From: Parcubacteria group bacterium M6-OD1-3
GTDB taxonomy: Bacteria > Patescibacteriota > Minisyncoccia > Moranbacterales > UBA9337
DNA: 64,000 nt
Direction of reading: 5' to 3'
Assembly (NCBI GenBank): GCA_003056165.1
Contig: LSNR01000014.1
Span: 70,408-134,407 of the forward strand
Within the stretch, counting starts at the first letter, position 1. Each line of letters opens with the position of its first letter. Positions 1 to 19,176 of the stretch are shown here, one piece after another. The notes below the pieces were generated by a model, which was not told the origin of the DNA, searched no databases, and saw only the letters and a list, made by a program, of their open reading frames with translations. The position numbers and the translations under genes are program-made.

Positions 1-251
1 CGTGCCAATTCCAGCGCTTCGCCTGTTGCCGTTAGTCTGATTAAACGACTAATACGAAACAGATGAAATGCATTGGCACCAATAATTGCAAAACCCAAGA
101 TTACAATAAAATTGTGGAAATTGGGAATTGCCGCCTGAATTGCCGCTAGAAAATATCCGCCAAGGATATAAAATGACAGCACTCTGGACATTGATTTTGC
201 TTCCGTCGTTCCGGCAGTTCGTAGTGCTCGGAAGAGCACGCGAAAGGTTTC
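1..251 (-). CDS. Partial CDS (N-terminus only; runs off the window edge); hydrophobic, probably a membrane or transporter N-terminus
   Basis: The minus-strand frame opens at an ATG (251-249) placed 5 nt after GGAGGT (a strong SD) and has no stop down to position 1. Translation begins MLETFRVLFRALRTAGTTEAKSMSRVLSFYILGGYFLAAIQAAIPNFHNFIVILGFAIIGANAF... The region is GC-rich. The track omits it because it is partial; the listed 49..348(-) ORF is in a different frame and looks spurious. Confidence 0.3.
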
Positions 252-268
252 CAGCATAATAACCTCCT

Positions 269-1015
269 TTATATCGCGCGAAAAATCGCAAAAAGTTTGG
301 CAAACGGATTTGGCCACCACGACATAGACATTGCCCGTTCCCAGTCATTGTTTATTTCTTGATAATAATTCTCAACAGCAGTTGAGGCAGATTGAATGCC
401 TCGCTGAAGTTGCTCAATTTTTTCAAGAAGCAGTGGCCAACCAATTGTTTTTGCCCAGTGATTCAGTTCATCCAGCGTTCCAAAAGGGGCATCTTGCATT
501 ACTCCTGTCATCAGAATATAGGCTTCAAATTCTTGCTCGGTGGAACAAGATAAAACCATATCCTGTAGAATGGAAACTCCCGGACGAATATATTCCGGAT
601 CGGGAATTTTTTTTGCGGATACCGTTTTTGCGGAGCCGTCTTTTTTTTCAACGGTTACGAAACCGCGACCGACGGCATCCATAGCAATAATCAAGCGAAA
701 ATGCTTGATATATTCGGTGCCGTTGACAGTATCTTCATACTCCAAATCGTTAATCACTTTTTGGAGCATTTTCCATTTCGCTTTGGAGCCAACTTTTTTC
801 TCGGATGACCGATCTCCGTTTTCCCATTTGGAAATGCTGAAAATATAGGAAAAAAGATGCTCGTCGTCCAACCCCTTGGGCTTGAGTCCGGTTTTGATAA
901 ATTCTTGAACAACCTCATGACCGGCGCCACCGACAATGGCGCGCCAGGCGCGAGTTAACCAGCGAAAAAAAACACCTTCTGTGATAGCTTCTGTTAAAAA
1001 TCCACCAATAGCCAT
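269..1015 (-). CDS. Hypothetical protein (248 aa) in a GC-rich segment
   Basis: Long minus-strand ORF with balanced amino-acid composition and an AGGAGG site 7 nt upstream of the ATG (reverse complement of 1016-1030). It is co-directional with, and immediately upstream of, the partial gene at 1-251. No family was recognised. The overlapping +strand ORF 331..684 has an implausible composition. Confidence 0.45.
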   Translation of the reverse strand: MAIGGFLTEAITEGVFFRWLTRAWRAIVGGAGHEVVQEFIKTGLKPKGLDDEHLFSYIFSISKWENGDRSSEKKVGSKAKWKMLQKVINDLEYEDTVNGTEYIKHFRLIIAMDAVGRGFVTVEKKDGSAKTVSAKKIPDPEYIRPGVSILQDMVLSCSTEQEFEAYILMTGVMQDAPFGTLDELNHWAKTIGWPLLLEKIEQLQRGIQSASTAVENYYQEINNDWERAMSMSWWPNPFAKLFAIFRAI

Positions 1016-1271
1016 AATATATCCTCCTGAATAGTTTTCATTACCACATTGATAATATAAGTTTATATTGTCAAAGAGCCGGTGAGGCTCGTTATTGATT
1101 GCCTCTGTTGTTGATATGCAGTATAGATATAGGTAGCATATTAACGGCTTATATTAGTACATTATTGTTGTTTTGTCAATCCATTTGAAGCTAAGTGTCG
1201 GAGGGTGCGATGTGATATTATAGTTAATACTATACATAGTGTTATTATGAGTATTGTTAATATTTTTTTGA

Positions 1272-1299
1272 TTGACAAAGATTGTTCTTCTGTTATGAT
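1272..1299 (+). promoter_or_regulatory. Candidate sigma70-type promoter for greA (TTGACA, 16-nt spacer, TATGAT)
   Basis: TTGACA at 1272-1277 and TATGAT at 1294-1299, about 110 bp upstream of the greA ATG. Confidence 0.35.
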
Positions 1300-1411
1300 T
1301 GGTGAGGAAAGATAAAAATAACTGCCAGGGCGGTCTTTTTTATTTCTTAATTAATTCACTAGACTCCTTACAAAGTTAATTTTGCGAGAAGTCTGTTTAA
1401 ATAAAAAATAA

Positions 1412-1870
1412 ATGACTAAATTAGTTACAGAAGAAGGATTAAAAAAACTTAAAGATGAATTAGCAAATAGAAAAATAAAAATCCGTCAAGAAATAGCCGG
1501 TGCTATTAAAGAAGCAAAAGAGCAGGGTGACTTGAGTGAAAATGCTGAATATAGTGAAGCGAAACGACAACAAGCAGAAAATGAGTCAAGAATAGCTAAC
1601 TTAGAAGCAATGGTTAAAAATTATCAAGTTGTAGAAAGCAATGGTAAATCAACTGGAATAGTGGAGATCAGTTCAGATGTAAAAGTAAAATTTGATGGTA
1701 AAGAGATAACTTTTCATATTGTAGGAGCCAGCGAAGCTGATCCTTCCAGTTTTAAAATTTCCAATGAATCACCAATGGGAAAAGCTTTTATGGGAAAGAA
1801 GAGGGGTGATATTGCTGAGGTGGAAGCTCCAGGGGGAATAGTAAAATATAAAATCTTGGAAGTAAATTAA
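1412..1870 (+). CDS. greA: Transcription elongation factor GreA
   Basis: 152 aa. N-terminal coiled-coil with an acidic tip (…EAKEQGDLSENAEYSEAKRQQ…) and a C-terminal FKBP-like domain; size and motif pattern are typical of GreA. Confidence 0.88.
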   Translation: MTKLVTEEGLKKLKDELANRKIKIRQEIAGAIKEAKEQGDLSENAEYSEAKRQQAENESRIANLEAMVKNYQVVESNGKSTGIVEISSDVKVKFDGKEITFHIVGASEADPSSFKISNESPMGKAFMGKKRGDIAEVEAPGGIVKYKILEVN

Positions 1871-1904
1871 AAATTAAAAATTTCTTGGAATTTAAAATTT
1901 AAGA

Positions 1905-1931
1905 AAGACTATTTTAAGATAGTCTTTTTTT
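1905..1931 (+). terminator. Rho-independent terminator after greA
   Basis: Hairpin AAGACTAT-ttaag-ATAGTCTT followed by a T7 run. Confidence 0.5.
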
Positions 1932-2003
1932 GATTGTTTCGGTAAATATAATTTAGTTTCTGGTACGATTTTAGATAGGATTTTAAATATTAAATAATTT
2001 ACT

Positions 2004-2123
2004 TATCCACAAACTAATTCTAAAAAAGACTTTGTGAATTATTTGTGATATGATATGATACTAAGAAATAAAGTAACTTCATTTAAATTTTAAAATAAAA
2101 CATAAAAATAAAATATAAAAAAT
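2004..2123 (+). repeat. Conserved leader/promoter region, copy 1 (repeated at 5647-5760)
   Basis: TTATCCACA…AAAAAAGACTTtGTGaATTATTTGTGATATGaTA…AAAGATAAAGTAACTTCATTTAAATTTTAAAATAAAA is about 85% identical to the sequence upstream of ORF 5761. It contains a TGnTATGAT extended -10-like element and a perfect DnaA-box 9-mer, TTATCCACA. Confidence 0.7.
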
Positions 2124-3593
2124 ATGAAAAAAATAGTGATAATTGCCATTATTGCCGTTGCGACGATGTTTTCCTTCGGTGGAATAAATGTTGTTTATGG
2201 CGGAGACACATCTATTGATAGTAGTGGTAATGTAATTTACAATTATAATGACAATAGTTCGCCGAAGAAAGTCAATAGCTATGTTAAAGATCCTATTGGT
2301 TGGGGAGGGGGGATCGGTGAGGGTGATAAGGGAAAAACCGGTGTTAATTGTTTTGATTATTATAGATTTCAAAGCGTTCAAGTAAATGTCGGTTCGGATG
2401 CTGATAGTTATAATGCTGGAGATGAAGTTAAGTTTATCGGTAATCTTGTAAATGAAAATAATCAACCGATTGTTAATGGAAATGTTTTTGTTCGTATTTC
2501 TCGAAAAAATAATGAGCATCCGGAAGACTGGGGTTATATAGTAGATGAATTTTTTGCTTTAGATAATATTGTTTTAAAAGCAAACGAAAGAAAAGAGGTG
2601 AGTTTCAGCTGGCATATTCCCAAGGGCACGACAGCTGGTAATTATCGGGCAAATTATTTTTTCACAGTTGGTAAAAAATTTAATTTAGGGGGATTATCTT
2701 TTTCTAATGAAGTTATTATCGGTTCCTCAAGTTTTGTTATTGAATCTCAAAACCATAATTATGTTCAGTTTGACAGATCAAAGACTAAGATTAATGAAAA
2801 AAAATATTTGCATGTAGGCAGTTTGCCGATTATAGATAAGGGTCAGTCTCCTGTACTTACCCAGATGATTGACAATACTTTCAGTGAGAATAAAGATGTA
2901 AAAATGACTTATGATTTATATTATTGGGATGGATTGAATGATGAAAATAAAATTGATTCTAAGACTGAGAATATAAATCTTTCGGCAAATTCAAAAAAGG
3001 AAATAAAATACACTTTCCCCTCAATGAATGTCAGTGTATACTTTCTAAGAGTTACTGCTGAGTATGATAATCAAAAATCAATTATAAATATTCGTTTAGC
3101 GAGCAAACAAGAGCGTCCAAGGCTCAATTATCCGGCGATTGTTTCTTTTCCGATTAAAAAAGGAGATAAGGAGATATTATATAGCTGTTTTCATAATACA
3201 TCAAATGTAAATACACAAGGAAAAGTTATTGTTACTTTAATTGACGAAGAGGGAAAAAAAGTGGCGCAGATTAATCATGAAGGAGAAATTCCTTCAGCAA
3301 TGTCAGCTGATAAAGTTGAATTTATTGCCAAAAAAAATTATCAAAAATTAAATTTGAAAGCAGAGGTTTATGATAAAAATGATAAGTTGGTCGATAGTTA
3401 TCAGACAACTTATGATTGCGCTGATTTTGATGCTTGCGACAATAAGAACAATAAAAACAATAATTCTGCTATCAACAGAATGAGAGATAGTTCCGTAAAA
3501 GTATGGTTGATTTTGTTAGTGATATTATTTGTAGTCATATCAGTTAGCACTCTTATTGTAGTTATCATTAAGAATAAAAATAAAAAGCGATAA
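2124..3593 (+). CDS. Secreted, C-terminally membrane-anchored surface protein (module A, copy 1)
   Basis: N-terminal signal peptide (MKKIVIIAIIAVATMFSFGG…) and a C-terminal TM helix plus basic tail (…VWLILLVILFVVISVSTLIVVIIKNKNKKR). Same architecture as the N-terminal half of ORF 5761. Confidence 0.7.
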   Translation: MKKIVIIAIIAVATMFSFGGINVVYGGDTSIDSSGNVIYNYNDNSSPKKVNSYVKDPIGWGGGIGEGDKGKTGVNCFDYYRFQSVQVNVGSDADSYNAGDEVKFIGNLVNENNQPIVNGNVFVRISRKNNEHPEDWGYIVDEFFALDNIVLKANERKEVSFSWHIPKGTTAGNYRANYFFTVGKKFNLGGLSFSNEVIIGSSSFVIESQNHNYVQFDRSKTKINEKKYLHVGSLPIIDKGQSPVLTQMIDNTFSENKDVKMTYDLYYWDGLNDENKIDSKTENINLSANSKKEIKYTFPSMNVSVYFLRVTAEYDNQKSIINIRLASKQERPRLNYPAIVSFPIKKGDKEILYSCFHNTSNVNTQGKVIVTLIDEEGKKVAQINHEGEIPSAMSADKVEFIAKKNYQKLNLKAEVYDKNDKLVDSYQTTYDCADFDACDNKNNKNNNSAINRMRDSSVKVWLILLVILFVVISVSTLIVVIIKNKNKKR

Positions 3594-3832
3594 TTGATAA
3601 AGTGATAAAAGCAGTATTGAGTGAATTTGAAAGTATATTATTTTTTTGAGGAGGATTTTGTCTCAAGTGAATTTGCAGAGAACGATTATTTATTAAATTA
3701 AAAATTGCTTAGATTTTAATTGATGAGAGTTAGTATATGTGAACAAAGAGTTTTATAAGATAAATATGTTTTGGATTAAACAAAAGAAATTGTTTTTGAG
3801 ATTAAAAAATAAATAATTCACTAATAAAAAAT

Positions 3833-5566
3833 ATGATAAAAAAATATTACAAAAAAATTTTGTTAAGCGTTGCAACGATAGCATTTTTAAGCGCATTAAG
3901 CGTTCCGAGCGCTATGGCGGTTTCTTCGTCTTGCAGTTATGTGCATAATCAGACATGTTGTGGGAATGGAGCAAAAACATTGGCAACCGGAACAGTTACT
4001 ATTAACCATGATATTTCTATACATGGTGGAAATAAGACTAATTTTTCTGTAGGAGATATTATCGTATTTGATTATTCTTGGGATGGAAGTTTCACAGCTA
4101 CAGGTGGATATTGGGACACCCCAACAGTTTTTAAATGTTCAACATGGAACGGTTGCTTTTCTTCATTTGTTGGCGCGACTAAGTCTAATCATTATACTCA
4201 AAAAATAGTAGATGATAACGGCCGGATAGGATATGTTCAATGGCAAGCGGACGAGCATAGTAATGCGGGAATTTCGGCTTCTTCATCTGACAATAGTGTA
4301 GTAGCTTGCACCGGAGTAATTTGCGCTGTCCTGGGAAACGGAAATGCAACAATAACTGTGACCGCATCTTCAGTGTGGGTAAGGCTTTTTTCTGAGATTT
4401 TTAGCGATGTTTCTCCATCTGGATGGTATGCATCTTTAGCGCCGGAAGGCTTTATAGATGTTCCTGGAAAAGGATATATTATCGGAAATAGTAAGCTTGA
4501 TGATGGATGCATTATAAGAAATATGAAAAGCCCATATACTACACTTTCGAATACTGGTAATTACAAAGGTTTAAGAATTCCAAGCAAGAGTGAAATGTTT
4601 ACGGTTAATACCCCTTCCACCCCCCTTCCCAAAACTAAACCGTCAACCACAATCACTGCACCAACTAAATTTGCTCCAACTGATCCTTACGATCTCATTT
4701 CTCTAGAAGGTCAAAATATTGACTTCAAAGGGACAAATACTGTAGGAAGCGGAGGAGGATCTACAGATAGATATGTTTGGGTAGATATAGACTTAAATAA
4801 AACAAATAGTCCCTCATATTTAGGTACAGATTGTCGAGCAGTGGATGGAGTAGATACAAATGGAGATGGTACTGTTGATATTAACGATTTATTACGCTTT
4901 GATTATATATATCCTAATTTCTCCACTAGTAGTCTATCACTCGGTGATCATAAAATATGCTTTAGTGTTAGACAAAAATATGCCGATGGAACAGTTGCTT
5001 GGGCTAATCCCATTGATAATGTTGATATAAAAATTACTTCTGCTACGCCCCCTCCAACCGTCGACTTAAAAATAAACGGAAGTGATAATCCAATCTCGGT
5101 CTCAAATGGTAGTGATTTAAACCTTACTTGGACAACAAGTGATGCCACATCTTGCTCAGTAATAAATGGTATTGGCTGGAATAATCCTAGCCCAAATATT
5201 CCAAATGGAAATAATAAGGTTACAGCTTCAACAGATTCAGCTTATACACTTTCTTGTATTGGGCCAGGAGGAACTGGAAATGATAGTGTATCGGTTCAAG
5301 TAACTTCTTCTTGTACTCCAAATTATACATATTCATGCATATCGACTAATAGTGTTGATTGTAATAAACCTAGTAATTGTGGATTAAGCAACACTCCAAC
5401 GAATTCTTGTCTAGCCTCTGATACTAATGGCTGTGTGCCTCCAGCAAACAAGCCACTTTCTGATTGTGAAACTGCCAATGGTGTTGGTACCTGTCCAGCA
5501 ACCGGAACAACAGTTGCTTGTCCAGCTTGTGCTAATGAATCTAATTGGGTAGAAGTAAATCCTTAG
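3833..5566 (+). CDS. Secreted Cys-rich protein with a conserved C-terminal domain (module B, copy 1)
   Basis: Signal peptide (…ALSVPSAMA). The C-terminal ~300 aa are clearly homologous to the C-terminus of ORF 5761: …AWANPIDNVDIKIT…VDLKINGS…YTLSC.GPGGTG…CPACANESNW. The tail is Cys-rich. Confidence 0.7.
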   Translation: MIKKYYKKILLSVATIAFLSALSVPSAMAVSSSCSYVHNQTCCGNGAKTLATGTVTINHDISIHGGNKTNFSVGDIIVFDYSWDGSFTATGGYWDTPTVFKCSTWNGCFSSFVGATKSNHYTQKIVDDNGRIGYVQWQADEHSNAGISASSSDNSVVACTGVICAVLGNGNATITVTASSVWVRLFSEIFSDVSPSGWYASLAPEGFIDVPGKGYIIGNSKLDDGCIIRNMKSPYTTLSNTGNYKGLRIPSKSEMFTVNTPSTPLPKTKPSTTITAPTKFAPTDPYDLISLEGQNIDFKGTNTVGSGGGSTDRYVWVDIDLNKTNSPSYLGTDCRAVDGVDTNGDGTVDINDLLRFDYIYPNFSTSSLSLGDHKICFSVRQKYADGTVAWANPIDNVDIKITSATPPPTVDLKINGSDNPISVSNGSDLNLTWTTSDATSCSVINGIGWNNPSPNIPNGNNKVTASTDSAYTLSCIGPGGTGNDSVSVQVTSSCTPNYTYSCISTNSVDCNKPSNCGLSNTPTNSCLASDTNGCVPPANKPLSDCETANGVGTCPATGTTVACPACANESNWVEVNP

Positions 5567-5646
5567 TTTTGAGTGAATTTAAATACAAATAAAATAACCG
5601 CAATAAAAACAACTTTAAATAAGTTGTTTTTATTGTAAAAAATATT

Positions 5647-5760
5647 TTATCCACAGATAACTTTTAAAAAAGACTTGGTGCATTATTTGTGATATGGTAA
5701 TATATTAAAAGATAAAGTAACTTCATTTAAATTTTAAAATAAAATATAAAAAATAAAAAT
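5647..5760 (+). repeat. Conserved leader/promoter region, copy 2
   Basis: See 2004-2123. Includes TTATCCACA at 5647-5655 and TGgTAATAT as an extended -10 candidate. Confidence 0.7.
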
Positions 5761-8496
5761 ATGAACAAAATAAAACAAGGTGCACTTATTGTATTTGGAA
5801 TGCTTTTTGTTATGGTTCCGTTAGTTAATTTGGTTTATGCACAAACAAATGAGGATATTGTTGGTTCAACTGTTGGAATGGATCAAGAGAATAGTCCTGT
5901 TGATGAAGACATAACGGTTAATAATGAAAACATAATTATACTAGCAAATGTAAATATCTGGGATGCGAAGATAAGCAATCAAGATGGAAATAAATTAACA
6001 ATAGACCTCGATATTAATAATGGTATTGGAAAATCTCAACCTAATATTAGATACGCAATTCAATTATTTGATAAAGGTAATGAGTCAAGAAAATTAGTTT
6101 CGGAAAAAGTATTTTCAGATGTTGTTAATGTTCCAGAAAATACCACTATACATAAAACAGTTAGCTATGTAGCTCCAGAATATCTCAAAGGAGATTTTGA
6201 TGTAGATATAATAAGTGAAAGTAGCGGAGGACTTCCATTGGGTGGCACTACTGCTGGGAGTATAACTCTTGATGGGTCTGGCGAGTACATCGATATTCAA
6301 AATGAGAGTTGTTTCTTAACTATCAAAAATAGTTCTGATAAAAAGAAGTATACTCTTCAGGACAGTATATCTATTGAGAAAAATCAAGAAGCTGTTATCT
6401 CTTGCGATATTAAAAGTAATTTTAAGAAAAATGAAAAAGTTATCCCATATATAAATATCTATCAAAGAGATTATTTTGGAAAAAAAATAAGAGAAGAAAA
6501 AGGAGAAGCTATAGAATTAGCACCTGGCAAAACAAAAACAGCGATATTTAACTTATCTGGAGTAGATAAGCCCCAAAGTTATGATGTAGTTGTTATGTTT
6601 AAAAAAGATGGTGATGTGGTAAATACCTCTGATGACACAAATAATATAATCTCTAACAAAATATTCTTTAGATATATTGTAGCTGGGATGGGTGCTAGTA
6701 TTCAAAATATTAGATTATCAAAAGATTACTATCAAAAGGGAGATTCCGCTGTAGTAGTATTAAATTGGTTGAAAAATGTGAATAAGCTTTCTGGGCCTGA
6801 AATAACTACAACCGAAGAACCTTCAATTATAGCAGAGGTAAATATTAAATCCTCTGATGGTAAAAAATGTGCTGAAGCAGTGAGAGAAAAAATGAATGAG
6901 ACAAGTCAAATGAAAAATGTGGCTGTAGTTATTCCAATAGTAAATGATTGTCTCAATCCTAGCGGAACTGTTAAACTGGTAGCAGAGGACGGAACGATTT
7001 TTGATCAGCAAGAATTTCAAATTAAAAGTAATTCTACATTCCAACCAAAAAAAGATTTTGAAAAAAATAATGAAAAAAAATTATCAATCCAAAAAATAAT
7101 GGCGATAGGTGTAACTATATTAGGAATAATAGTTATAGTTGGATTAATTGTTATTGTTATCAGACGGAATAAAAAAAGTGGTGGTATGATGAGCTTGTTG
7201 TTAATTTTATTAACAGCTGGTATTGTTTTTTCAACGAAAAATGTTGAGGCTACGACATTTAGCGCCTCAGTTCCTGGATTGGGTTTTGGTATTCCTATTA
7301 CTGTACAAATGAATAAAAGTGTCTATAGACCGAGAGAAAATGCTACTTTATCAATGCGTGTTAATGGTTCCGTCGTAGGCACAGCTATGTTTCTCAAGCA
7401 TTCTAGATATAATTTTTCTGCTAGTTTTAATGGTCATAGTTTAAGCAGACCAGGGAGCGTCAGTGGTTCAGTAGAAAGTAGATCAGGTAGATATAATGCT
7501 GGCGTCAGTGCATATGAGTCAATATGTAGACTTACCTGGTTAAATACATGTAATTGGGGGTCATCATCAAGAATTTTTAGCGGAAGTGTTCCCTATACGG
7601 TCAGAAGCGTACCAAGACCGCCGGCTAAAACCAATCCGAGAGCGATAATTGATGTTCCATCTAATAATTCCACATTTCAGCAAGGACAACGGATAACTTT
7701 TGCTGGACATGGTGTATTAGGAACTGGAGGAGGTAGAATTGATGAATATTTTTGGGCTGATGTACGACCAGGAACACCATCGTATAGAGGCACGAGATGT
7801 GCTTGTGCTGATGGCTTTGGAAATAGATGTTTAATAACTAGCGGATCAACATCCACTTACAGAACTACTGGACTTACCGTAGGAAATCATAGGATTTGTT
7901 TTAATGTTAGACAAAGATATACCGATAGAACAGTTGCTTGGGCTAATCCCATTGATAATGTCGATATAAAAATTACAACTCCTCCTCCAATCGTTGACTT
8001 AAAAATCAACGGTAGTGGCGGTCCAATTTCAAATGTTTCATCTGGTGGTGATTTGAGGATTGCTTGGACTGTACAAAATGCCACATCTTGCTTAGTAACA
8101 AGTGGTGATGGATGGACGGGCTCAAAAAATTCATCCCGTGGAAATGATAATGTCTTAGCTTCAACAACTTCAACTTATACACTTTCTTGCACTGGTCCAG
8201 GAGGAACTGGAAGTGATAGTGTTAGAGTGTATATTTGTGTCCCAAATCTTAATTATTCATGTCAGAAAACTAATGATAAGACAAGCTATTGTGCTAATCA
8301 TTGTGGAGAAATATTTACTCAAAAAAATAGATGCTTTGTTTCTGATGGAAATAGTTGTAGTCCACCAGCATCAACAGTAGGTATTAAACGGGCTTCTGTT
8401 TGCGCAAATCATAATACAACTTGTTCAGCAACTGAGCCAGGTGTTTCTTGTCCAGCTTGCGCTAATGAATCTAATTGGATTGAAATAAAGCCTTAG
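5761..8496 (+). CDS. Fused module A2-B2: signal peptide, surface domain, TM anchor (…IVIVIRRNKK), then a second signal-peptide-like segment (MMSLLLILLTAGIVFS…) and a Cys-rich B-type domain
   Basis: 911 aa. The internal TM helix plus RRNKK at about 7100-7176 matches the end of ORF 2124. An in-frame ATGATG at 7186 is followed by a signal-peptide-like segment and then a region homologous to ORF 3833, ending CPACANESNWIEIKP. There is no stop codon between the two halves. Confidence 0.65.
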   Translation: MNKIKQGALIVFGMLFVMVPLVNLVYAQTNEDIVGSTVGMDQENSPVDEDITVNNENIIILANVNIWDAKISNQDGNKLTIDLDINNGIGKSQPNIRYAIQLFDKGNESRKLVSEKVFSDVVNVPENTTIHKTVSYVAPEYLKGDFDVDIISESSGGLPLGGTTAGSITLDGSGEYIDIQNESCFLTIKNSSDKKKYTLQDSISIEKNQEAVISCDIKSNFKKNEKVIPYINIYQRDYFGKKIREEKGEAIELAPGKTKTAIFNLSGVDKPQSYDVVVMFKKDGDVVNTSDDTNNIISNKIFFRYIVAGMGASIQNIRLSKDYYQKGDSAVVVLNWLKNVNKLSGPEITTTEEPSIIAEVNIKSSDGKKCAEAVREKMNETSQMKNVAVVIPIVNDCLNPSGTVKLVAEDGTIFDQQEFQIKSNSTFQPKKDFEKNNEKKLSIQKIMAIGVTILGIIVIVGLIVIVIRRNKKSGGMMSLLLILLTAGIVFSTKNVEATTFSASVPGLGFGIPITVQMNKSVYRPRENATLSMRVNGSVVGTAMFLKHSRYNFSASFNGHSLSRPGSVSGSVESRSGRYNAGVSAYESICRLTWLNTCNWGSSSRIFSGSVPYTVRSVPRPPAKTNPRAIIDVPSNNSTFQQGQRITFAGHGVLGTGGGRIDEYFWADVRPGTPSYRGTRCACADGFGNRCLITSGSTSTYRTTGLTVGNHRICFNVRQRYTDRTVAWANPIDNVDIKITTPPPIVDLKINGSGGPISNVSSGGDLRIAWTVQNATSCLVTSGDGWTGSKNSSRGNDNVLASTTSTYTLSCTGPGGTGSDSVRVYICVPNLNYSCQKTNDKTSYCANHCGEIFTQKNRCFVSDGNSCSPPASTVGIKRASVCANHNTTCSATEPGVSCPACANESNWIEIKP

Positions 8497-8548
8497 TTTT
8501 GAGTGATTGATATTAGATATAATAATTGAAACTTGACTCAAAAAGAAG

Positions 8549-8589
8549 AGACAGTTTAAATAATATTGAAGCTGTCTTTTTTTTGAAAA
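8549..8589 (+). terminator. Putative terminator after the surface-protein modules
   Basis: AGACAG…CTGTCT hairpin followed by a T10 run. Confidence 0.4.
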
Positions 8590-8663
8590 TGTAGTATAAT
8601 AAAGTTAGAATCAAAAAAGTTTTATTGATAATGATTTAATAAAAATAAAATAAAAATAAATAT

Positions 8664-9779
8664 ATGTTTAAGCTCTCCGGATTTAAAAAAAATTATTTTC
8701 TAGGCATTGATTTTGGTACTTCGTCAATTAAAATAGTGGAATTGGTTTATAAAAAAAGTGGTGTATATCTATCTAACTACGGTTGGGTTAACTTACCTGC
8801 AAATAACAAAGTTTCTAAATCTACTATGACGCAGGATGAAAGAGACAGGGAAGTTGAAAAAAATTTAAAAAAACTAATTGATAAAATGAGTATTGAGAGT
8901 AATTCAGCACATATTTCGATGGGTGCTTTCAAAGGTTTATCAACTTTAGTAGAAGTTTTCGGAGCGACGGAGGATAATATGGGAGATATTGTTAAAGCAG
9001 AGGCCAATAAATATATCCCAGTATCTTTGGATGAGGTTTATTTAAGCTGGGATATAGTATCTAAGCAAAAAAAGAAAAGTGTTTTAACAAAAATAAAAGA
9101 AAGTGAATCTGATAGATTAGAGCAGAAGAATAAATCCAGTCAAGTTTTGCTTGTTGCAGCACCAAAAGAAGATGTTCGCAGGTATGAAAAAATAGTTGAT
9201 AATGTAGGGCTGGAGGTGGATTCGTTAGAGTTGGATATATTTTCGGTGGTGAGATCATTGATTGGTGATGACTTAGGAACATTTTTGATAATTGATATGG
9301 GTGCAAAGATAACTAATATTATATTGGTCAAGAGAGGGATAATTACTATTAATAGGAATATTAATGTTGGCGGAGATGAAATAACTAAAAATATAATGTC
9401 TAATTTAAATGTTTCATGGTCTCGTGCAGAAGATTTTAAAAAAAGAAATGATTATCTTTCCGGTGAAGGAAAAATGATGATTGATCCAGTAGTAAATATT
9501 GTAACAAAAGAAGCTAAGCGGATTATAGAACTGGGTATCAATAATAATGAAAAAAACAAAATTGATAGTATCCTGATTACTGGAGGTGGAGTTGATATTG
9601 TTGGGATAAGTAATATTTTTTCTGACAAATTGGGCATTAAAGCGACAATGAGTGATCCTTGGAAAAAAATTATAATTGAAAATAATAAATTGAAAAATAA
9701 AAATACAAATATTTTAGCTATGTTATCTGTGGCTACGGGATTAGCACTTAAAGGTGTCGGAAGTTATAAGCGTAATTAA
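8664..9779 (+). CDS. pilM: Type IV pilus assembly protein PilM (actin-like ATPase fold)
   Basis: FLGIDFGTSSIKIVEL at the N-terminus, a 371-aa length typical of PilM, and pilN/O-like genes immediately downstream. Confidence 0.8.
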   Translation: MFKLSGFKKNYFLGIDFGTSSIKIVELVYKKSGVYLSNYGWVNLPANNKVSKSTMTQDERDREVEKNLKKLIDKMSIESNSAHISMGAFKGLSTLVEVFGATEDNMGDIVKAEANKYIPVSLDEVYLSWDIVSKQKKKSVLTKIKESESDRLEQKNKSSQVLLVAAPKEDVRRYEKIVDNVGLEVDSLELDIFSVVRSLIGDDLGTFLIIDMGAKITNIILVKRGIITINRNINVGGDEITKNIMSNLNVSWSRAEDFKKRNDYLSGEGKMMIDPVVNIVTKEAKRIIELGINNNEKNKIDSILITGGGVDIVGISNIFSDKLGIKATMSDPWKKIIIENNKLKNKNTNILAMLSVATGLALKGVGSYKRN

Positions 9780-9866
9780 TTTTGTGTTAAAATAAATTTG
9801 TGCTATAATTTAATGAGTTATCAGGTAATAAAATTTTTCATATAAATAACAATAAAAATAAAAAAA

Positions 9867-10421
9867 ATGATTGATATAAATCTTCATAAAGCATCAGAAA
9901 ATGACTTAAAAATAAGTCGAAGAAAAAGTATTTTTAGAAGTGGATTTTTCCTATCAGTTGCTCTGCTAGCCGTTGTTTCGGTTATTTTCGGGATAACTAA
10001 ATTGTATCAGAACAATTTAATAAACAAAAAGAATTCATTGGTTCAACTGAGAGCGGATAAGTTGAATTCCTTTGATAATAATACTGTTAATAATTTGGTT
10101 AACTTTAAAAGAAGATTAGATGGAGTTTCATTTAATTTGCAAAATAAAGATAATCCTGGTGAGGTATTAAATAGCGTGGAAAACCTAATAGTTAAGGGTG
10201 CCTCTCTTAATGATTTAGACTATGACATTATGAATAATAGTCTAAAAATGGAAGTTGTTGCAGATAGTTTTAGGTTAGCTTCAAATCAAATGCTTAGTTT
10301 GAAGAAAAGTGACTTATTCAGGGATGTTTTAATTGACGATTCTTATAGAAATGAGGCTGGACAGGCTGTCTTTACTCTAACGGGTGTACTAAAAAATGAA
10401 ACAAAAATAAATAAAAGATAA
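9867..10421 (+). CDS. pilN: PilN-like pilus assembly protein (single N-terminal TM)
   Basis: 184 aa with a basic N-terminus and one TM helix (FFLSVALLAVVSVIFGI). Its position after pilM supports the call. Confidence 0.5.
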   Translation: MIDINLHKASENDLKISRRKSIFRSGFFLSVALLAVVSVIFGITKLYQNNLINKKNSLVQLRADKLNSFDNNTVNNLVNFKRRLDGVSFNLQNKDNPGEVLNSVENLIVKGASLNDLDYDIMNNSLKMEVVADSFRLASNQMLSLKKSDLFRDVLIDDSYRNEAGQAVFTLTGVLKNETKINKR

Positions 10422-10469
10422 TAAATATAAAAAGACTTTTTTATAAAAGTCCTAAAAATAATTAAAAAT

Positions 10470-11321
10470 ATGAAATTAAAATTTTTATTGATGCCTATTG
10501 CAGTGATATCTTCTATAATAATTATTATTTGGTATATTTGGCCAATGTGGTTTGATGATAAGCTAGATGATAGTATTACTTCCATAAACAAAAATATTAA
10601 ATCAGTTCAGGCTGAGATTAATAAAATAGAACAAAGAAAAACAAATATTATATCTCTTGACGAATCTTTGCAAAGTCAAGGAGAGGATAAAAACTTAGTA
10701 GAGAATTATTATCCAGAAATACGCAAGGAGGAGGATGTTATAAATAAAATAAATCAGATTGCTTTTTCTACTGGGGTATATATATCTGAAATGAATATTG
10801 ATTATGGTGACGATATTTCTAAAGAAAAAATGAATAAATTCTTAGCTATACCTAAGTATGTGCCTATTCCAGAAATAGTTCCAAAAAATTCAACAAAAAC
10901 TGCGTCAAGTACACCAGCGAGCATATCTGCTAAGAAAGATGTTTTGTCGAAGCTGGTAGCTGTTAATTTGAAGATATATGGAAATTATGATCAAATAAAA
11001 AGTTTTCTTAATACGCTTTACCCGATTGGGTTATTGAGCAATATAGAATCATTTGAAATCAAGAAGGACGCTAATGAGCAGAAGAAGGCGGAAGGTGATA
11101 GTGATAAAAATTCATCAACTTTATTAACTAGTAATATAACCATAAATTTTGGTTATTTAAAAAAAGGAAATTCCAAACTTGCTGAATTATTAGAATCACC
11201 AACAATGGAAGTTAAACAATTCGATTTTAATATTATTGATAAATTTAGAGATTTATTACTTGAGAAATATTCTAATAGTGAAATAGGTGAAACGGGAGAA
11301 TCTAATCCATTTTTTCCATAG
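10470..11321 (+). CDS. pilO: PilO-like pilus assembly protein (TM plus coiled coil)
   Basis: N-terminal TM helix followed by a coiled-coil (IKSVQAEINKIEQRK…), sitting between pilN and pilB. Confidence 0.45.
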   Translation: MKLKFLLMPIAVISSIIIIIWYIWPMWFDDKLDDSITSINKNIKSVQAEINKIEQRKTNIISLDESLQSQGEDKNLVENYYPEIRKEEDVINKINQIAFSTGVYISEMNIDYGDDISKEKMNKFLAIPKYVPIPEIVPKNSTKTASSTPASISAKKDVLSKLVAVNLKIYGNYDQIKSFLNTLYPIGLLSNIESFEIKKDANEQKKAEGDSDKNSSTLLTSNITINFGYLKKGNSKLAELLESPTMEVKQFDFNIIDKFRDLLLEKYSNSEIGETGESNPFFP

Positions 11322-11565
11322 AGAGTAACTTAGTTTGTAGTAATGATTGGTCTACTTTTTGAATGTCAAAAAAATGTTTTATTTGTAATAAAAGTGAAAT
11401 AGACTATGTATTTTCAAAAAATATTTTTTAATTCTCGGAGAGATATATATTAAATTAACATAGTATATTATGTAATATTTTCTAAATCCGTTTTAATTTT
11501 TCTGCGATTCAAAATAATAAATAGTTATAAAAGTAGGGACTTAAATTGGCTATCAATACAAAAAA

Positions 11566-13242
11566 ATGCCTGAAAATAAAAATCAAAAATCAAAAAATCA
11601 ATTAATAAAAGTTGCAAAGAAATTGGGAATAAAAGCTTTAGGAAGTGCTCCAAAGAACATAGATAAGAAAAGTATTGAAATTATTCCAGAAAAAATAGGA
11701 TTGAAATATAAAATGTTAGCATTCGATAAATCTGGTAAAACTGTTAGCGTCGCAATGACTGATCCACAAGATATAGAAGCAAGAAATGTTCTAACTTTTT
11801 TGGCAGAAAGAAATAAAGTAACATTTGATATTTATATTACTTCGGAAGCTGTGATGAGAGAGATTATTAGCAAATATCATTCTGCCGAAAAGGCGGTAAA
11901 AGAAGTGATGGCTTCTTTTGAAGATACTACAAATAAGGCAAACAAAACAGAAAGTAAGAAAAAAAGACAGGCTAGGCAAATGATGATTCAAGATGCTCCT
12001 GTTTCTAAATTGGTTCAAGTTATTATCAATCATGCTATTGAGGGTGGTGCCAGTGATATTCATATTGAGCCGATGGGTGATGAATACAGAGTTAGGTTTA
12101 GAGTTGATGGATTATTGCATGCATCACTAGTATTGCCAAAGAGTGTTGGAATGGCAACAATCTCACATATTAAAATATTATCTAACTTAAAAATAGATGA
12201 GACTAGAAAACCTCAAGATGGTAGGTTTAAAAGTGAGCGGGGAAAAATTATCACAAAGGAAGATGTCGATTTTCGAGTGTCGACATTACCAGTAATATCT
12301 GGCGAAAAGGTGGTGATGCGAGTATTGACTAAGGATGATAGAGTTTTTAATTTAAAAAAATTAGGTTTGTTAGGGAAGAATTACGATATTTTAAATAAAA
12401 AAATAAAAGAAACTAGCGGTATAATTTTATTGACTGGTCCTACTGGATCAGGAAAATCAACAACACTATATTCTTTTCTAAAAATTATCAATATTGAAGA
12501 GAGAAATATTGTTACGCTTGAAGACCCAGTGGAATATTCTTTAGATGGAATAAATCAAAGCCAAATAAATCCAGCGATAGGTTATACTTTTGCCAATGGT
12601 TTGCGTTCTATCCTCAGACAAGATCCAAATGTTATAATGATTGGGGAGATTCGTGATGGGGAAACTGCTGAATTAGCAATTCATGCTGCTTTGACTGGAC
12701 ATCTTGTTTTTTCTACTCTGCATACAAATAGCGCTATTAGTGCTATCCCAAGATTGATTGATATGGGATTGGAGCCATTTCTATTATCTTCTTCCTTGAA
12801 CGCAGTAGCTGCGCAGAGATTAGTAAGAAGATTATGTGATAGTTGTAAAACAGAAATTAAATTACCAGATGCCATTTATGAAGAAATAAAAAATTCTCTC
12901 AAAAATGTGAGCGAAGAAGAAATAAAAAAATATGGTTTAAAATCACTAGATTTGGAAAATATGAAATTCTATAAAAGTGTTGGCTGTGAGGAATGTGGCG
13001 GGGTTGGATATAAAGGAAGAGTCGCAATATATGAGTGTGTTGATGTTAATAATGATTTACGAGAAGTAATCATAGAAAAAGATGAACTGTTGCTGAAGAG
13101 GACTGCCAATAAACAACATTTATTAAATATGCGACAAGATGGCTTATTAAAATCTTTGCTAGGGTTAACTTCAGTATCTGAGGTAGAAAGAATGACGGAA
13201 GGAAGTTTGACTGTGGGTGAATTAGATGATGACAAAGGATAA
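11566..13242 (+). CDS. pilB: Type IV pilus assembly (extension) ATPase PilB/GspE family
   Basis: Walker A GPTGSGKST, a tetracysteine Zn motif (CDSCK…CEECGGVGYKGR), and a GspE N-domain. Length 558 aa. Confidence 0.9.
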   Translation: MPENKNQKSKNQLIKVAKKLGIKALGSAPKNIDKKSIEIIPEKIGLKYKMLAFDKSGKTVSVAMTDPQDIEARNVLTFLAERNKVTFDIYITSEAVMREIISKYHSAEKAVKEVMASFEDTTNKANKTESKKKRQARQMMIQDAPVSKLVQVIINHAIEGGASDIHIEPMGDEYRVRFRVDGLLHASLVLPKSVGMATISHIKILSNLKIDETRKPQDGRFKSERGKIITKEDVDFRVSTLPVISGEKVVMRVLTKDDRVFNLKKLGLLGKNYDILNKKIKETSGIILLTGPTGSGKSTTLYSFLKIINIEERNIVTLEDPVEYSLDGINQSQINPAIGYTFANGLRSILRQDPNVIMIGEIRDGETAELAIHAALTGHLVFSTLHTNSAISAIPRLIDMGLEPFLLSSSLNAVAAQRLVRRLCDSCKTEIKLPDAIYEEIKNSLKNVSEEEIKKYGLKSLDLENMKFYKSVGCEECGGVGYKGRVAIYECVDVNNDLREVIIEKDELLLKRTANKQHLLNMRQDGLLKSLLGLTSVSEVERMTEGSLTVGELDDDKG

Positions 13243-13307
13243 TATAAATAATCTGTTGGAATATAATAAATATAATAAATAAATATAATAAATATTTAGA
13301 TAAATAT

Positions 13308-13787
13308 ATGAGTGAAATTAAAGTCAATATTGAAAATGAGGATGAAGACAATAAATCTAATGAATTTAGTAATAGCGATAAAGATAGTAGAAATAATTCG
13401 GAAAAAAATAAAGTAACTATCTTATTAGCAGAAGATGATGAATTCATTAGAGATATTTATAATCGTATTTTTAAGATGAATGGGTATGAAGTTGTGTTAG
13501 CAACCAATGGCTTGGAAGCAATGAAGAAAATGGAAAAAATAACGCCTGATTTAATATTATTGGATGTTATGATGCCTTATCAAAATGGTAAAGAAGTTTT
13601 TAAAAAAATTAAAAAAGATGATCGATTAAAAAATATTCCCGTAGTTTTTTTGACGAATGTTTCCGCCGAAGATGATATAGAAAAAGAATTGCTGGAGCAG
13701 GCCGATAAATATTTAATTAAAGCGCATTTTACGCCCAAAGAAGTTGTGGCGGAAGTTGCTCTTTTGTTGAAAAATAAAAATGAATAA
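13308..13787 (+). CDS. Single-domain response regulator (CheY-like receiver, PilH/PilG-like) with an acidic N-terminal extension
   Basis: VTILLAEDDEFIRD…LILLDVMMPYQNGKEV…KNIPVVFLTNVS matches the receiver-domain signature, with D and K at the expected positions. It lies between pilB and pilT and overlaps the pilT start by 8 nt. Confidence 0.85.
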   Translation: MSEIKVNIENEDEDNKSNEFSNSDKDSRNNSEKNKVTILLAEDDEFIRDIYNRIFKMNGYEVVLATNGLEAMKKMEKITPDLILLDVMMPYQNGKEVFKKIKKDDRLKNIPVVFLTNVSAEDDIEKELLEQADKYLIKAHFTPKEVVAEVALLLKNKNE

Positions 13788-14862
13788 TACATTGCGCGTC
13801 GGACAAAAATTAAAAAGTTATCTGTTAATAGTGGCTCAACAAAATGCTTCGGATTTACATCTAGTTGTAGGTCGACATCCTACCATTAGAGTTGATGGAA
13901 GACTAATTCCCCTTGCTGAAGAAGAGATTTTAACTCCAGAAAAAACGAAAGAATTTAGTAAAATATTGTTAACAGAAAACAATGAGCGAGAAATGTTGGA
14001 AAAGGGACAAATAAATTTTTCTTATGATTTTGAAGGTAAAGCCAGATTTAGAACTAGTGTTTATTTTCAGCAAGGAAACTTGAGTATAGCAATGCGATTG
14101 ATTCAAAATAAAATAAGAACTCTCGAGGAATTGGATGTTACTACGAACTTGTATGATTTTGCAAAATATTCGCAGGGACTTGTTTTAATTACTGGACCAG
14201 TTGGACATGGAAAATCAACAACTTTAGCTGCAATAGTAGAACACATTAATCACAATTATGATAAGCATATACTTACTATCGAAGACCCTATTGAATATGT
14301 CTACCAACAAGATCGTTGTATTATTAACCAGAGAGAGATCGGTCGAGATGTCAAAAGCTTCCCTTCTGCATTAAGGGGTGTCTTCAGAGAAGATGTGAAT
14401 GTTGTTCTTATCGGAGAAATGCGAGACTTAGATACAATTAGTACAACAATGACTGCAGCTGAAACCGGACATTTAATTTTTGCTACATTGCATACTAATA
14501 ATAGCGCACAAACAGTAGACAGAATTGTTGATGTTTTCCCATCACATCAGCAAAATCAAATTAGGTCTCAACTAGCGAATGTTTTATTAGGAGTTTTGTC
14601 TCAAAGGTTGGTTCCGCGGATAGGTGGAGGAAGGGTTCCAGCAGTAGAGATTATGTTAAAAAATCATGCTGTAGGAAATCTCATTAGAGATAATAGATCT
14701 TATCAGATAGATTCAGTGATAGAGACGAGTCTTAAAGAGGGGATGGTTTCTCTAGACAGATCATTGGGGGAATTGGTAAAAAATGGTATAATTTCTATAG
14801 ATGATGCCTTTGCTTACACTGGTAACAAAGAATATTTGAAGACAATAATAAAAAATAAATAA
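13780..14862 (+). CDS. pilT: Twitching-motility (retraction) ATPase PilT
   Basis: Walker A GPVGHGKST and a 360-aa length; PilT/PilU family pattern. Confidence 0.9.
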   Translation: MNNTLRVGQKLKSYLLIVAQQNASDLHLVVGRHPTIRVDGRLIPLAEEEILTPEKTKEFSKILLTENNEREMLEKGQINFSYDFEGKARFRTSVYFQQGNLSIAMRLIQNKIRTLEELDVTTNLYDFAKYSQGLVLITGPVGHGKSTTLAAIVEHINHNYDKHILTIEDPIEYVYQQDRCIINQREIGRDVKSFPSALRGVFREDVNVVLIGEMRDLDTISTTMTAAETGHLIFATLHTNNSAQTVDRIVDVFPSHQQNQIRSQLANVLLGVLSQRLVPRIGGGRVPAVEIMLKNHAVGNLIRDNRSYQIDSVIETSLKEGMVSLDRSLGELVKNGIISIDDAFAYTGNKEYLKTIIKNK

Positions 14863-14897
14863 ATTAATAGATAACGGTAAATAGTTATAATAATATT

Positions 14898-16106
14898 ATG
14901 AGATTCAAATTTAAGGCAAAAGATAAAAAAAATAAAATACAAAGTGGCGTAGTAGATGCAATAAGTAAAGAATTAGCTGTCCAAGTCTTACAAGAAAATG
15001 ATTTGAATGCTATCCTAATTGAAAGAGAAACAGGCGATTCTCCGTTGAGTCAATATTTGCATAAGTCTTGGGAAAAGGTAGGTAAAAAAGATTTGTTAGT
15101 ATTTTTTCGACAATTTCATGCTTTAATATCTTCTAAAGTGCCTGTTGTTTATTCTCTTCGGGCAATTGGTGACCAAACTGAACACAAATATTTAAGTAGT
15201 CTAATTAAGGATATTGCTAATGATGTTGAGGATGGTACAACTTTTTCAGAAGCATTGGGAAGATATCCAGATGTTTTTCCTAAAGTTGTAACTAGCGTTA
15301 TTAATGCTGGAGAGGTTTCTGGTAATTTAGAGGAGGCTATCAAACATGTTGCAGAAAGTACAGAAAAAAATTATCGCATTACTGCTAAGATAAGGGGAGC
15401 GTTGATTTATCCGGCTTTTATTCTGACAGCAGCTTTGATTGTCGGGTTTTTGAGTGTTGTAATTATTGTGCCAAAATTAACTTTGATCATTAAAGATCTG
15501 AATGCAGAAGTTCCATGGTATACGCATATGGTGATAGGCATCGGAGATTTTATGCAGGCTTATTGGTGGGCAGTATTAGTGGTAATTTTTGGTTTTATAA
15601 TTGCTGTTGCTTATTATGTTAAAACAGAAGCTGGTCATAAGGAATGGGATAAAATACAATTAGAATTGCCAATTATTGGAAAATTGTTTCGGTATCTTTA
15701 TTTGACAAAATTTGCTAATAACTTTGTAGTGATTTTAGATGGTGGTGTGCCAATAGTTCAATCACTTAATATCGTTGCAGAAGTAGTTAATAATAGTATT
15801 TATCAAGGAATAATACTTCGTTGTGCTGATGAAGTTAAAACCGGAGGAAATATTAGTACAGTGCTTGCTCAATCAGATTATATTCCTGGCATTGTTACGA
15901 AAATGGTAATAGTAGGTGAGAAAACTGGAAAAATTAGTGAATCATTAGGTAGTGTGGGAAATTTTTATGAACAAGAAATGGATGAGATGATTAAAAATTT
16001 ATCGGTTTTAATTGAGCCAGTTTTAATTGTTGGATTGGGATTAGGTGTGGCGTTTTTAGCATTTTCGATTATTTTGCCGATTTATAATGTAGTGCAGAAT
16101 TTCTAA
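14898..16106 (+). CDS. pilC: Type IV pilus inner-membrane platform protein PilC/GspF
   Basis: 402 aa with two GspF repeats and three TM segments. Confidence 0.88.
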   Translation: MRFKFKAKDKKNKIQSGVVDAISKELAVQVLQENDLNAILIERETGDSPLSQYLHKSWEKVGKKDLLVFFRQFHALISSKVPVVYSLRAIGDQTEHKYLSSLIKDIANDVEDGTTFSEALGRYPDVFPKVVTSVINAGEVSGNLEEAIKHVAESTEKNYRITAKIRGALIYPAFILTAALIVGFLSVVIIVPKLTLIIKDLNAEVPWYTHMVIGIGDFMQAYWWAVLVVIFGFIIAVAYYVKTEAGHKEWDKIQLELPIIGKLFRYLYLTKFANNFVVILDGGVPIVQSLNIVAEVVNNSIYQGIILRCADEVKTGGNISTVLAQSDYIPGIVTKMVIVGEKTGKISESLGSVGNFYEQEMDEMIKNLSVLIEPVLIVGLGLGVAFLAFSIILPIYNVVQNF

Positions 16107-16259
16107 TTGTGTATAATGTTGATTGGCAATAACGTATTTTTCTGTCATAATTGAGTTGTTAAAGATAGCCGAAAGAATATTAGGAGTAATGTTTTGAATT
16201 TAATAAAAAGAAGTAAATATGAAAATGAAAAATAAAAAAGAGAAGGGGGGTGAAATGGA

Positions 16260-16661: not shown

Positions 16662-16841
16662 TATTTCAGAATTTTCTTTGGAGCTTGCTAATTTTGTTTT
16701 TGTATAATAATTTAAAATTGGCAAGCAAATAGAGAGTTTTATTTTTCGTGGTGCAATGTTTTATTTTTAATAATAACTAAAGTAAGGCAACAGATTGATT
16801 TGCAATATAGCTTAATTATTTACTGAATGAATGCAGTTTTT

Positions 16842-17261: not shown

Positions 17262-17292
17262 ATATTAATAAATAAATTTCAAAGTAACTAAT

Positions 17293-18099: not shown

Positions 18100-18100
18100 G

Positions 18101-18589: not shown

Positions 18590-18612
18590 GATTTTTTAAG
18601 ATATATAATAAA

Positions 18613-19170: not shown

Positions 19171-19176
19171 AAACAT

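Follow-up and report, generated by a model that had tools for sequence, protein, structure and literature searches.

Bacteria belonging to the Candidate Phyla Radiation (CPR, Patescibacteria) make up a large share of bacterial diversity and are host-attached, and almost all of their envelope and attachment proteins are annotated as 'hypothetical'. Two-part surface complexes are already known from other systems, as are precursors that are divided into two products. Signal peptidase splits the FbcH cytochrome b-c1 precursor of Bradyrhizobium and the structural polyproteins of flaviviruses and pestiviruses, and SlpA, the surface-layer (S-layer) precursor of Clostridioides difficile, is cleaved into low- and high-molecular-weight (LMW and HMW) subunits. 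Here we analyse a 64,000-nucleotide (nt) stretch of the Parcubacteria group bacterium M6-OD1-3 (contig LSNR01000014.1, positions 70,408 to 134,407; hereafter the window), an AT-rich sequence of about 31% GC in which greA (1412-1870) precedes three long plus-strand open reading frames (ORFs) and, after these, a complete type IV pilus operon. From the ORF list and translations, the three are A1 (2124-3593), B1 (3833-5566) and a fused ORF, A2B2 (5761-8496).

A secreted protein paired with a membrane-anchored partner has been described in the WxL/WxLIP (DUF916-DUF3324) clusters of Firmicutes (Hassan et al. 2023, PMC10599100). WxLIP has a signal peptide, tandem IgG-like domains and a C-terminal transmembrane (TM) helix, and contains DUF916 (PF06030) and DUF3324 (PF11797); WxL proteins are secreted, their N-terminal binding domains vary while the Trp-motif module at their C-terminus is conserved, and the pair has been proposed to form a non-covalent surface complex (PMC10599100).

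Our favoured explanation, held with moderate confidence, is that the two copies in the window are ancient paralogues, each encoding a two-part cell-envelope module specific to Patescibacteria, and not the outcome of a fresh duplication. That grade applies jointly to the whole explanation, that is, to the anatomy of the module, its two encodings, its processing, co-regulation, homogenisation and role. The most likely role would be surface attachment or an envelope structure, coupled functionally to type IV pili in at least some lineages, including the present one. The single-gene form is the normal state for the A2B2 family, being neither an assembly error nor a recent accident; fusion itself is ordinary for the family, and it is the family anatomy that is of interest.

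Anatomy of the A/B module and its two encodings

Part A would be a Sec-exported stalk of three immunoglobulin/macroglobulin (Ig/MG)-like beta-sandwich domains, with a C-terminal helix in the membrane and a short basic cytoplasmic tail. Part B would be a secreted, multi-domain protein made up of an N-terminal domain specific for the A type, an Ig domain, a disulfide-rich tail and a C-terminal hydrophobic-x-Glu motif. The module appears in two encodings, as adjacent genes (A1 and B1) or as one ORF (A2B2). In the split copy, A1 (489 amino acids, aa) has a signal peptide (aa 1-26), an ectodomain of three Ig/MG-like beta-sandwiches (aa ~85-431), a TM segment (aa 460-482) and the tail KNKNKKR. B1 (577 aa) starts with a cleavable signal peptide (aa 1-29, ...SAMA|VSS) and an A1-specific N-domain (aa 30-247), and its C-terminal half (aa 248-577, nt 4574-5563), which is common to B2, holds an Ig domain (PPPTVDLKINGS...), a Cys-rich tail and the terminal NWVEVNP; 10 of its 22 cysteines lie within the last 95 aa. 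The signal peptide, C-terminal TM and basic tail that a preliminary description of this DNA had assigned to A1, and the Cys-rich secreted nature that it had assigned to B1, are borne out by the ORFs.

The same description took the second copy for an in-frame fusion in a single 911-aa ORF whose anchor runs into a second signal-peptide-like segment, and this fusion is genuine. The plus-strand ORF opens with a signal peptide (aa 1-27) and the A2 ectodomain of three beta-sandwiches (aa ~55-425), followed by TM1 (aa 446-467, nt 7096-7161), the cytoplasmic loop RRNKKSGG (nt 7162-7185) and TM2 (aa 476-497, nt 7186-7251), a predicted internal signal peptide that ends VEA|TTF. The junction (...IVIVIRRNKKSGGMMSLLLILL..., with MM at 7186) reads ...IVIVI-RRNKKSGG-MMSLLLILLTAGIVFSTKNVEA-TTF... 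in translation. From T498, after the predicted cut, B2 begins TTFSASVPGLGF... and consists of a B2-specific beta-sandwich (aa 498-615), a low-confidence linker, an Ig domain (aa 740-826) and a Cys-rich tail with the terminal NWIEIKP (plus strand, nt 8473-8493). In such a fused form the basic tail of the A anchor would double as the n-region of the B signal peptide, giving a TM hairpin that ends in a near-invariant AxA. A cut by signal peptidase I at this site would let fused and split genes yield the same products, membrane-anchored A and released B at 1:1, and B would be kept with its cognate A through the B N-domain, forming a surface complex. Both window copies, one of the A1 type and one of the A2B2 type, have the full set of family features (an A triple beta-sandwich, a TM, a cognate B N-domain and the C-terminal hydrophobic-x-E, in fused or adjacent genes); no further family members were found elsewhere in the 64-kb window.

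Fusion extends far beyond this genome. An independent assembly (GCA_003056105.1) with 99.4% identity over 18.5 kb has the same 911-aa ORF and an identical junction, and P0002, a metagenomic protein of 856 aa with 27% identity, aligns with residues 60-531 of the fused ORF, through TM-loop-TM, and again over the Ig domain (E 1e-59). A profile of the fused ORF and P0002, searched against 1.84e9 (1.84 billion) protein representatives, gave 4879 matches at E<=1e-3, 1070 of them at E<=1e-30. Most of the best 150 were 700-1200 aa long, with the match covering A, the hairpin and the start of B, and a TM hairpin (two adjacent internal helices) was detected by hydropathy in 110 of these 150. The fused architecture is ancestral and typical in the A2B2 family.

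The A1 family uses both encodings: 45 of 80 loci have a fused A1-B gene and 35 a split pair, with at least 10 changes of state (neighbour-joining (NJ) tree, Fitch count). The B1-type N-domain, searched with an iterated hidden Markov model (HMM), was found in 46 A1-fused proteins, in no A2-fused protein and in none of the 148 A2B2 representatives; it also occurs in 37 stand-alone ORFs, 28 of which directly follow a split A1 gene. The B2-type N-domain (B2N) occurs only with A2, and the order A then B, or fusion, is strict. Taken together, this Rosetta-stone and gene-order evidence indicates, at the level of sequence, that A and B act together and that the B N-domain is specific for its own, cognate A type.

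At the other end of B, a hydrophobic-x-Glu motif lies 1-5 residues from the C-terminus; NW[KR]EV[AST]P and ...[VI]P.[WF].E[FIQ] are its typical forms, and in the window it reads NW[VI]E[VI]xP. It is present in 111 of 141 A2B2 representatives, in 30 of 44 fused A-type proteins in the loci and in 13 of 17 ORFs after a split A, compared with 63 of 297 control ORFs. A sortase- or exosortase-type sorting signal for B (LPXTG, PEP-CTERM or GlyGly-CTERM) was considered and rejected, since the motif is at the extreme C-terminus with no TM after it. In A1, no LPXTG-like motif precedes the TM and basic tail, and there was no match to an NCBIfam sorting domain.

The type IV pilus neighbourhood and predicted processing of the fused product

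The module had been placed directly upstream of a type IV pilus locus, and the operon does follow A2B2 directly: it occupies 8664-19752 on the plus strand and consists of pilM, pilN, pilO, pilB, a response regulator gene, pilT, pilC, two pilin genes, pilD and three minor-pilin-like genes, with 167 nt between the fused ORF and pilM. Among 80 related loci, 13 have a pilus gene within 10 kb. In five (L028, L046, L049, L085 and L087) pilB/pilC lies 65-470 bp downstream of the fused gene on the same strand, and in L022 and L017 it lies 1.5-4.4 kb downstream. The pilus-adjacent loci are scattered over the NJ tree, and their frequency is far above the <1% expected by chance (a rough estimate for ~1-Mb genomes); the arrangement in the window is therefore part of a recurrent pattern. 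The earlier suggestion of pilus-associated or host-attachment proteins gains some support from this recurrent synteny with pilB, but most relatives do not sit beside pilus genes. In our assessment a functional pilus link is moderately supported and a dedicated pilus component is not.

The strongest rival goes one step further and makes the module a dedicated type IV pilus accessory, for example a support or conduit that spans the envelope of cells lacking a secretin, or an adhesin that goes with the pilus, instead of a general envelope or attachment complex. We regard this as possible but somewhat unlikely. In its favour are the short gap to pilM, the five same-strand pilB neighbours and the spread of the 13 pilus-adjacent loci over the tree at a frequency above chance, as well as the lack of PilQ in CPR bacteria (PMC6744442). 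However, most loci, including long ones (L005, L018, L023 and L036), have no pilus genes nearby, other conserved neighbours (MurJ and LepA) are present in L002 and L006, A and B carry no prepilin signal, and comparisons of sequence and fold linked neither to any known pilus part. Specifically, the N-termini of A1, B1 and A2B2 are Sec signal peptides of the ordinary kind; they lack the class III signature (G|[FM]xxxE) and do not match the N_methyl family PF07963, which the downstream pilins do match.

Three features of the wider neighbourhood were also observed. The sister genome carries, ahead of the point where the window starts, an array of six small genes of PF18895 (T4SS_pilin-like) at L001 1-3063, ~4 kb upstream of greA; with this array upstream and the pilus operon downstream, the cassettes sit between two different pilin-type loci. 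In two distant relatives (L002 and L006/L018) the module lies between a gene for a MurJ-like flippase and lepA. Thioredoxin-family genes are found close to the module in L002 and L005, and they may be relevant to disulfide formation in the Cys-rich tail of B.

Returning to the general envelope or attachment complex that we prefer, we looked at the hairpin in an alignment of 78 fused proteins. The position aligned with A497 (-1) is Ala in 76 and Gly in the other two, position -3 is A/V/T/S/G in all 78, position +2 is T/S in 76, and a K/R-rich loop precedes the hydrophobic core of TM2. The predicted internal signal peptide of the A2B2 family shows an n-h-c layout, and small residues occupy -3 and -1. 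The same AxA-site pattern is seen in fused A1-type proteins, and in split B proteins the corresponding position is taken by a normal, cleavable signal peptide at the N-terminus. The near-invariant AxA and the signal peptide of split B together suggest that signal peptidase I would cleave the fused precursor into anchored A and released B.

It is also conceivable that the fused protein stays uncleaved, as a single hairpin-anchored membrane protein with two ectodomains and TM2 as a permanent anchor. Even if no cut is made, the topology (N-out, TM, basic loop, TM, C-out) is consistent in itself, and tethering of B would account for the tolerance of fusion. We consider this unlikely, because positions -3 and -1 after TM2 obey the rule for signal peptidase I with hardly an exception (Ala at -1 in 76/78), a constancy for which a mere anchor offers no obvious reason, and because B of the split relatives has its cleavable signal peptide at the corresponding point.

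Age of the two copies and probable exchange between them

The preliminary description interpreted the locus as a tandem duplication of one cassette that is still undergoing duplication and divergence, the second copy having been fused through loss of a stop codon and a spacer. The leader and the C-terminal half of B are indeed repeated. B1 residues 248-577 match residues 604-911 of the fused protein at 47% identity (E 4e-74), with a nucleotide match of 70% identity between 4947-5576 and 7886-8506. A1 and A2, in contrast, have no similarity by BLASTP (E 2.8), and no sequence relationship links the N-terminal half of B1 to that of B2, so that pairwise alignment of the cassettes recovers the leader (83.5%) and the B C-half (47% at the aa level) but not the cassettes as wholes. 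Only a profile-profile comparison (hhalign) joins the A1 and A2B2 families, at 99.2% probability, E 2.5e-19 and 17% identity over 330 colinear columns. Two antisense ORFs (4948-5148 and 7887-8084), which exist as described, had been offered as independent confirmation of the duplication; they are merely the reverse strand of the homologous B segment, and we rejected them both as confirmation and as genes.

Each copy belongs to a large orthologue family of its own that extends across Patescibacteria. A word search for the A1 family gave 66 matches, mostly of 450-500 aa, from Moranbacteria and Parcubacteria, and A1 relatives in species-representative genomes were found at 200 loci, all in Patescibacteria. 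An A1-type gene and an A2B2-type gene also stand side by side in distant genomes (L004, L005, L019 and L069), where A2B2 is already fused; in L005, L019 and L069 A2B2 comes first and A1 second, and L004/L023 have three fused genes in a row. The recurrence of this pair in distant genomes means that the A1/A2 duplication long predates the window genome, and the copies are ancient paralogues. Many third-party annotation (TPA) records of metagenome-assembled genomes (MAGs) that carry this Patescibacteria-specific gene (L011, L017, L018, L020, L025 and others) are titled 'uncultured Bdellovibrionales', 'Micavibrio' or 'Saccharibacteria'; these titles are probably taxonomic mislabels.

A recent tandem duplication of the A-B cassette in the window genome, followed by loss of the stop and spacer from copy 2, is accordingly very improbable. 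It would be in keeping with the common leader (83% identity), the common C-terminal half of B (47% aa, 70% nt), the same gene order in both copies and a homopolymer at the junction (A7, see below) that could mediate frame changes. Against these stand the missing BLASTP signal between A1 and A2, with 17% identity at the profile level, the different types of B N-domain, the deep orthologue family of each copy, the presence of the same paralogue pair, with A2B2 fused already, in L004, L005, L019 and L069, and the dominance of the fused state in the A2B2 family.

For the most similar patches of these ancient copies, gene conversion is the best reading, and they are not the mark of a young duplication. 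Compared with the orthologues P0070 and P0071, B1 reaches 61-62% identity in its N-half but just 38-39% in its C-half, whereas the C-half has 47% identity with B2 of the same genome. Synonymous divergence (dS) falls to 0.4-0.6 over 4931-5300, compared with 1.0-1.6 in the flanks. In the sister strain (GCA_003056105.1), leader 1 carries leader-2 bases at 2012-2037, which lifts the identity of the leaders to 93%. L005 shows the same pattern: similarity between its two B proteins is confined to the last 255 residues, of which the final ~45 are nearly identical. The leader and the B C-half are thus closer to the paralogous copy in their own genome than to orthologues, and this, the dip in dS, the leader-2 bases and the L005 pair all point to gene conversion, in which DNA exchange would have homogenised these two stretches. 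When the sister strain is set against the window (1-2040 versus 2040-18496; L001 4241-22736), the two diverge by ~5% upstream of the leader (72 differences over 1.4 kb) but hardly at all over the next 16 kb, which looks like a recombination breakpoint inside leader 1.

The repeated leaders themselves were reported as ~85% identical with a TGnTATGAT-like -10 element, and this agrees closely with what we find. Leader 1 (2003-2123, plus strand) opens with the 9-mer TTATCCACA at 2003-2011 and is A-rich, unstructured and without a Shine-Dalgarno sequence; leader 2 (5647-5760, plus strand) is a copy of it, with TTATCCACA at 5647 and a 31-nt block at 5714-5744. Over 133 nt, the repeat (2003-2135 versus 5647-5772) has an identity of 83.5% (blastn E 2.6e-35), and its 31-nt core (2070-2100 = 5714-5744) has two exact copies in the window where none is expected. 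An extended -10 promoter-like site, TTGTGA-16-TATGAT with a TG upstream of TATGAT, lies at 2032-2059 in leader 1. Such near-identical promoter and leader copies would drive both cassettes and thereby co-regulate them. A riboswitch-like element was ruled out by RNA folding, in which the leaders are unstructured (z +1.1 and +0.1), and window positions 1800-8700 gave no Rfam match; apart from the extended -10 and the A-rich leader, nothing of the leader is conserved in other species. The 9-mer is a perfect DnaA-box consensus that is present at 2003-2011, 5647-5655 and 37640-37648, with no minus-strand copies in the window; at the leader starts it could be a regulatory site, or it could have been carried along with the repeat by chance. 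A perfect, AT-rich 35-nt palindrome (5601-5635) with a 15-bp stem, terminator-like on both strands, lies in the gap that separates B1 from leader 2. The spacer between A1 and B1 (3594-3832, plus strand) is unusually long at 239 nt; it is about 200 nt in the closest orthologue (L010) and 2-20 nt in most split relatives.

At the junction of A2 and B2, an A7 homopolymer (7171-7177, plus strand) lies in the Lys codons of the loop. A -1 slip in this tract would give ...RRNKKVVV* with a TGA that overlaps the B2 ATG (ATGA), which would be a split, translationally coupled pair. Slippage at A7 is a plausible route for the fusion and fission changes seen elsewhere in the family, and Lys-codon homopolymers may drive these repeated changes. 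The weakest rival, that the 911-aa ORF is an assembly or sequencing artefact in which a miscalled A7 hides a real stop between two genes, can draw on the very natural ATGA junction produced by a one-base deletion and on a real between-assembly homopolymer difference in B1, but it is extremely improbable, given that the tract is identical in the independent assembly and that distant homologues with unrelated DNA keep a continuous TM-loop-TM through which the alignment runs. An assembly error within 5761-8496 had been named as what would overturn the fusion, and the comparison with the independent assembly shows none; the fused state is the norm for the A2B2 family, and we therefore reject both the assembly-error and the recent stop-loss readings. 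The homopolymer difference in B1 concerns a C6 tract (4620-4625, plus strand), which is C6 in GCA_006243105.1 and SRR14803397 as well and C5 in GCA_003056105.1, where B1 is frameshifted into 290 + 241 aa; this may reflect phase variation, a strain pseudogene or a homopolymer error. The GCA_006243105.1 sequence (L008, VAPL011010239.1) is an A1-B1 fragment at 99.9% identity, and its accession numbering implies an assembly of >1 million contigs. Possibly the organism was carried along in the assembly of a large host or a metagenome.

Several points weigh against the explanation that we favour. Cleavage at AxA, the interaction of A with B and the location at the surface are all deduced from protein sequence. 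The counts of fusion and fission rest on a rough NJ tree, the argument for homogenisation on few orthologues (P0070 and P0071), and dS is hard to interpret at 31% GC. No pilus gene lies within 10 kb in 67 of the 80 loci, nor in L002, L004, L005, L006 and L010. In the AlphaFold2 (AF2) models, confidence is low for the B linker (625-736) and for the Cys-rich tail with the C-terminal motif, and the models support no claim that B docks on A.

Comparison with known systems

Structure prediction and remote homology searches, which had been recommended for A and B, gave confident sandwiches for the A domains and no meaningful relative by sequence in the PDB, with single proteins or with profiles. AF2 predicts tandem beta-sandwiches for A1 (predicted local distance difference test, pLDDT, 87) and for A2B2 (pLDDT above 90 over residues 55-425), with helices at 433-469 and 476-488 in the latter, and for B2 an N-terminal sandwich and an Ig domain (740-826). 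Sandwiches of this predicted Ig/MG-like type are generic folds. For A1, B1, A2B2 and P0002, neither Pfam nor NCBIfam gave a match above its cutoffs. We found no description of the A/B family in the literature; what is listed for CPR bacteria includes membrane 'hypotheticals' enriched in Parcubacteria and a disulfide oxidoreductase resembling MdbA (PMC6744442).

The A/B family spans >1000 sequence clusters with no Pfam, NCBIfam or PDB relative, and it now has a testable anatomy: a cognate anchor and partner, a conserved (predicted) internal signal-peptidase site, a C-terminal motif and a recurrent place upstream of pilB. The module offers, in addition, a clear case from nature of genes that fuse and split repeatedly where a TM anchor meets a signal peptide; when 'fused' ORFs of this type turn up in CPR MAGs, they should not be repaired as if they were frameshifts. 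A wider and more speculative reading, which we regard as doubtful when taken as a whole, is that of a phylum-wide, undescribed CPR envelope system. A Sec-translocated 'polyprotein' would be cut at its internal signal peptide into a stoichiometric stalk A and a released B, the C-terminal hydrophobic-x-Glu would be a new docking or sorting signal, the complex would be an outer layer or a host-attachment structure through or beside which the secretin-less type IV pilus works, and gene conversion would keep the interacting ends of the paralogues matched.

By Foldseek, the best matches are the MG arrays of alpha-2-macroglobulin and complement C3 (E 1e-11 to 1e-7), with TM-scores of only 0.10-0.16, and A1 has a weak match to Pfam MG2 (E 0.0035; 18 bits versus a cutoff of 32.8). 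The likeness would lie in the predicted tandem beta-sandwiches, which may be of MG type, and bacterial alpha-2-macroglobulins are likewise membrane-tethered. However, reading of the translations shows no CxEQ thioester around any Cys of A1 or A2B2, there is no bait region, thioester domain (TED), CUB or A2M/TED Pfam match, and the A/B proteins are far shorter. With two-subunit S-layers, whose partners come from a single precursor or from adjacent genes, the module has in common one locus that would supply two extracellular partners in fixed stoichiometry, a strong promoter with a long leader, and variable exposed parts combined with conserved anchoring parts. It differs in that Pfam and NCBIfam detect no SLH, CWB2 or other wall-binding domain, anchoring would be by a TM helix, and the predicted cut would be made by signal peptidase rather than by a dedicated cysteine protease; A/B is known here from sequence, with no indication of a lattice.

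The closest architectural counterpart is WxL/WxLIP, and the closest mechanistic one a polyprotein split at an internal signal peptide. A resembles WxLIP and B resembles WxL, in architecture only, through the Ig-like ectodomains, the single C-terminal TM and the adjoining secreted partner. Neither A1 nor the fused ORF matches Pfam DUF916 or DUF3324 at E<=1, and neither B1 nor the fused ORF matches WxL; A has three domains and WxLIP two, and B ends in one W-x-E within its last 7 residues after a Cys-rich tail, unlike the ~150-aa dual W-x-L domain of WxL. Fusion with an internal signal peptide has not been described for WxL clusters, and the phylum is different. In FbcH and the flaviviral polyproteins, as in A2B2, a TM, a short cytoplasmic loop and a second hydrophobic segment with a small-x-small site allow one ORF to give an anchored and a translocated product. 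The proteins are unrelated and processing of A2B2 is predicted here; unlike these precursors, the A/B module switches repeatedly between one gene and two across its phylum.

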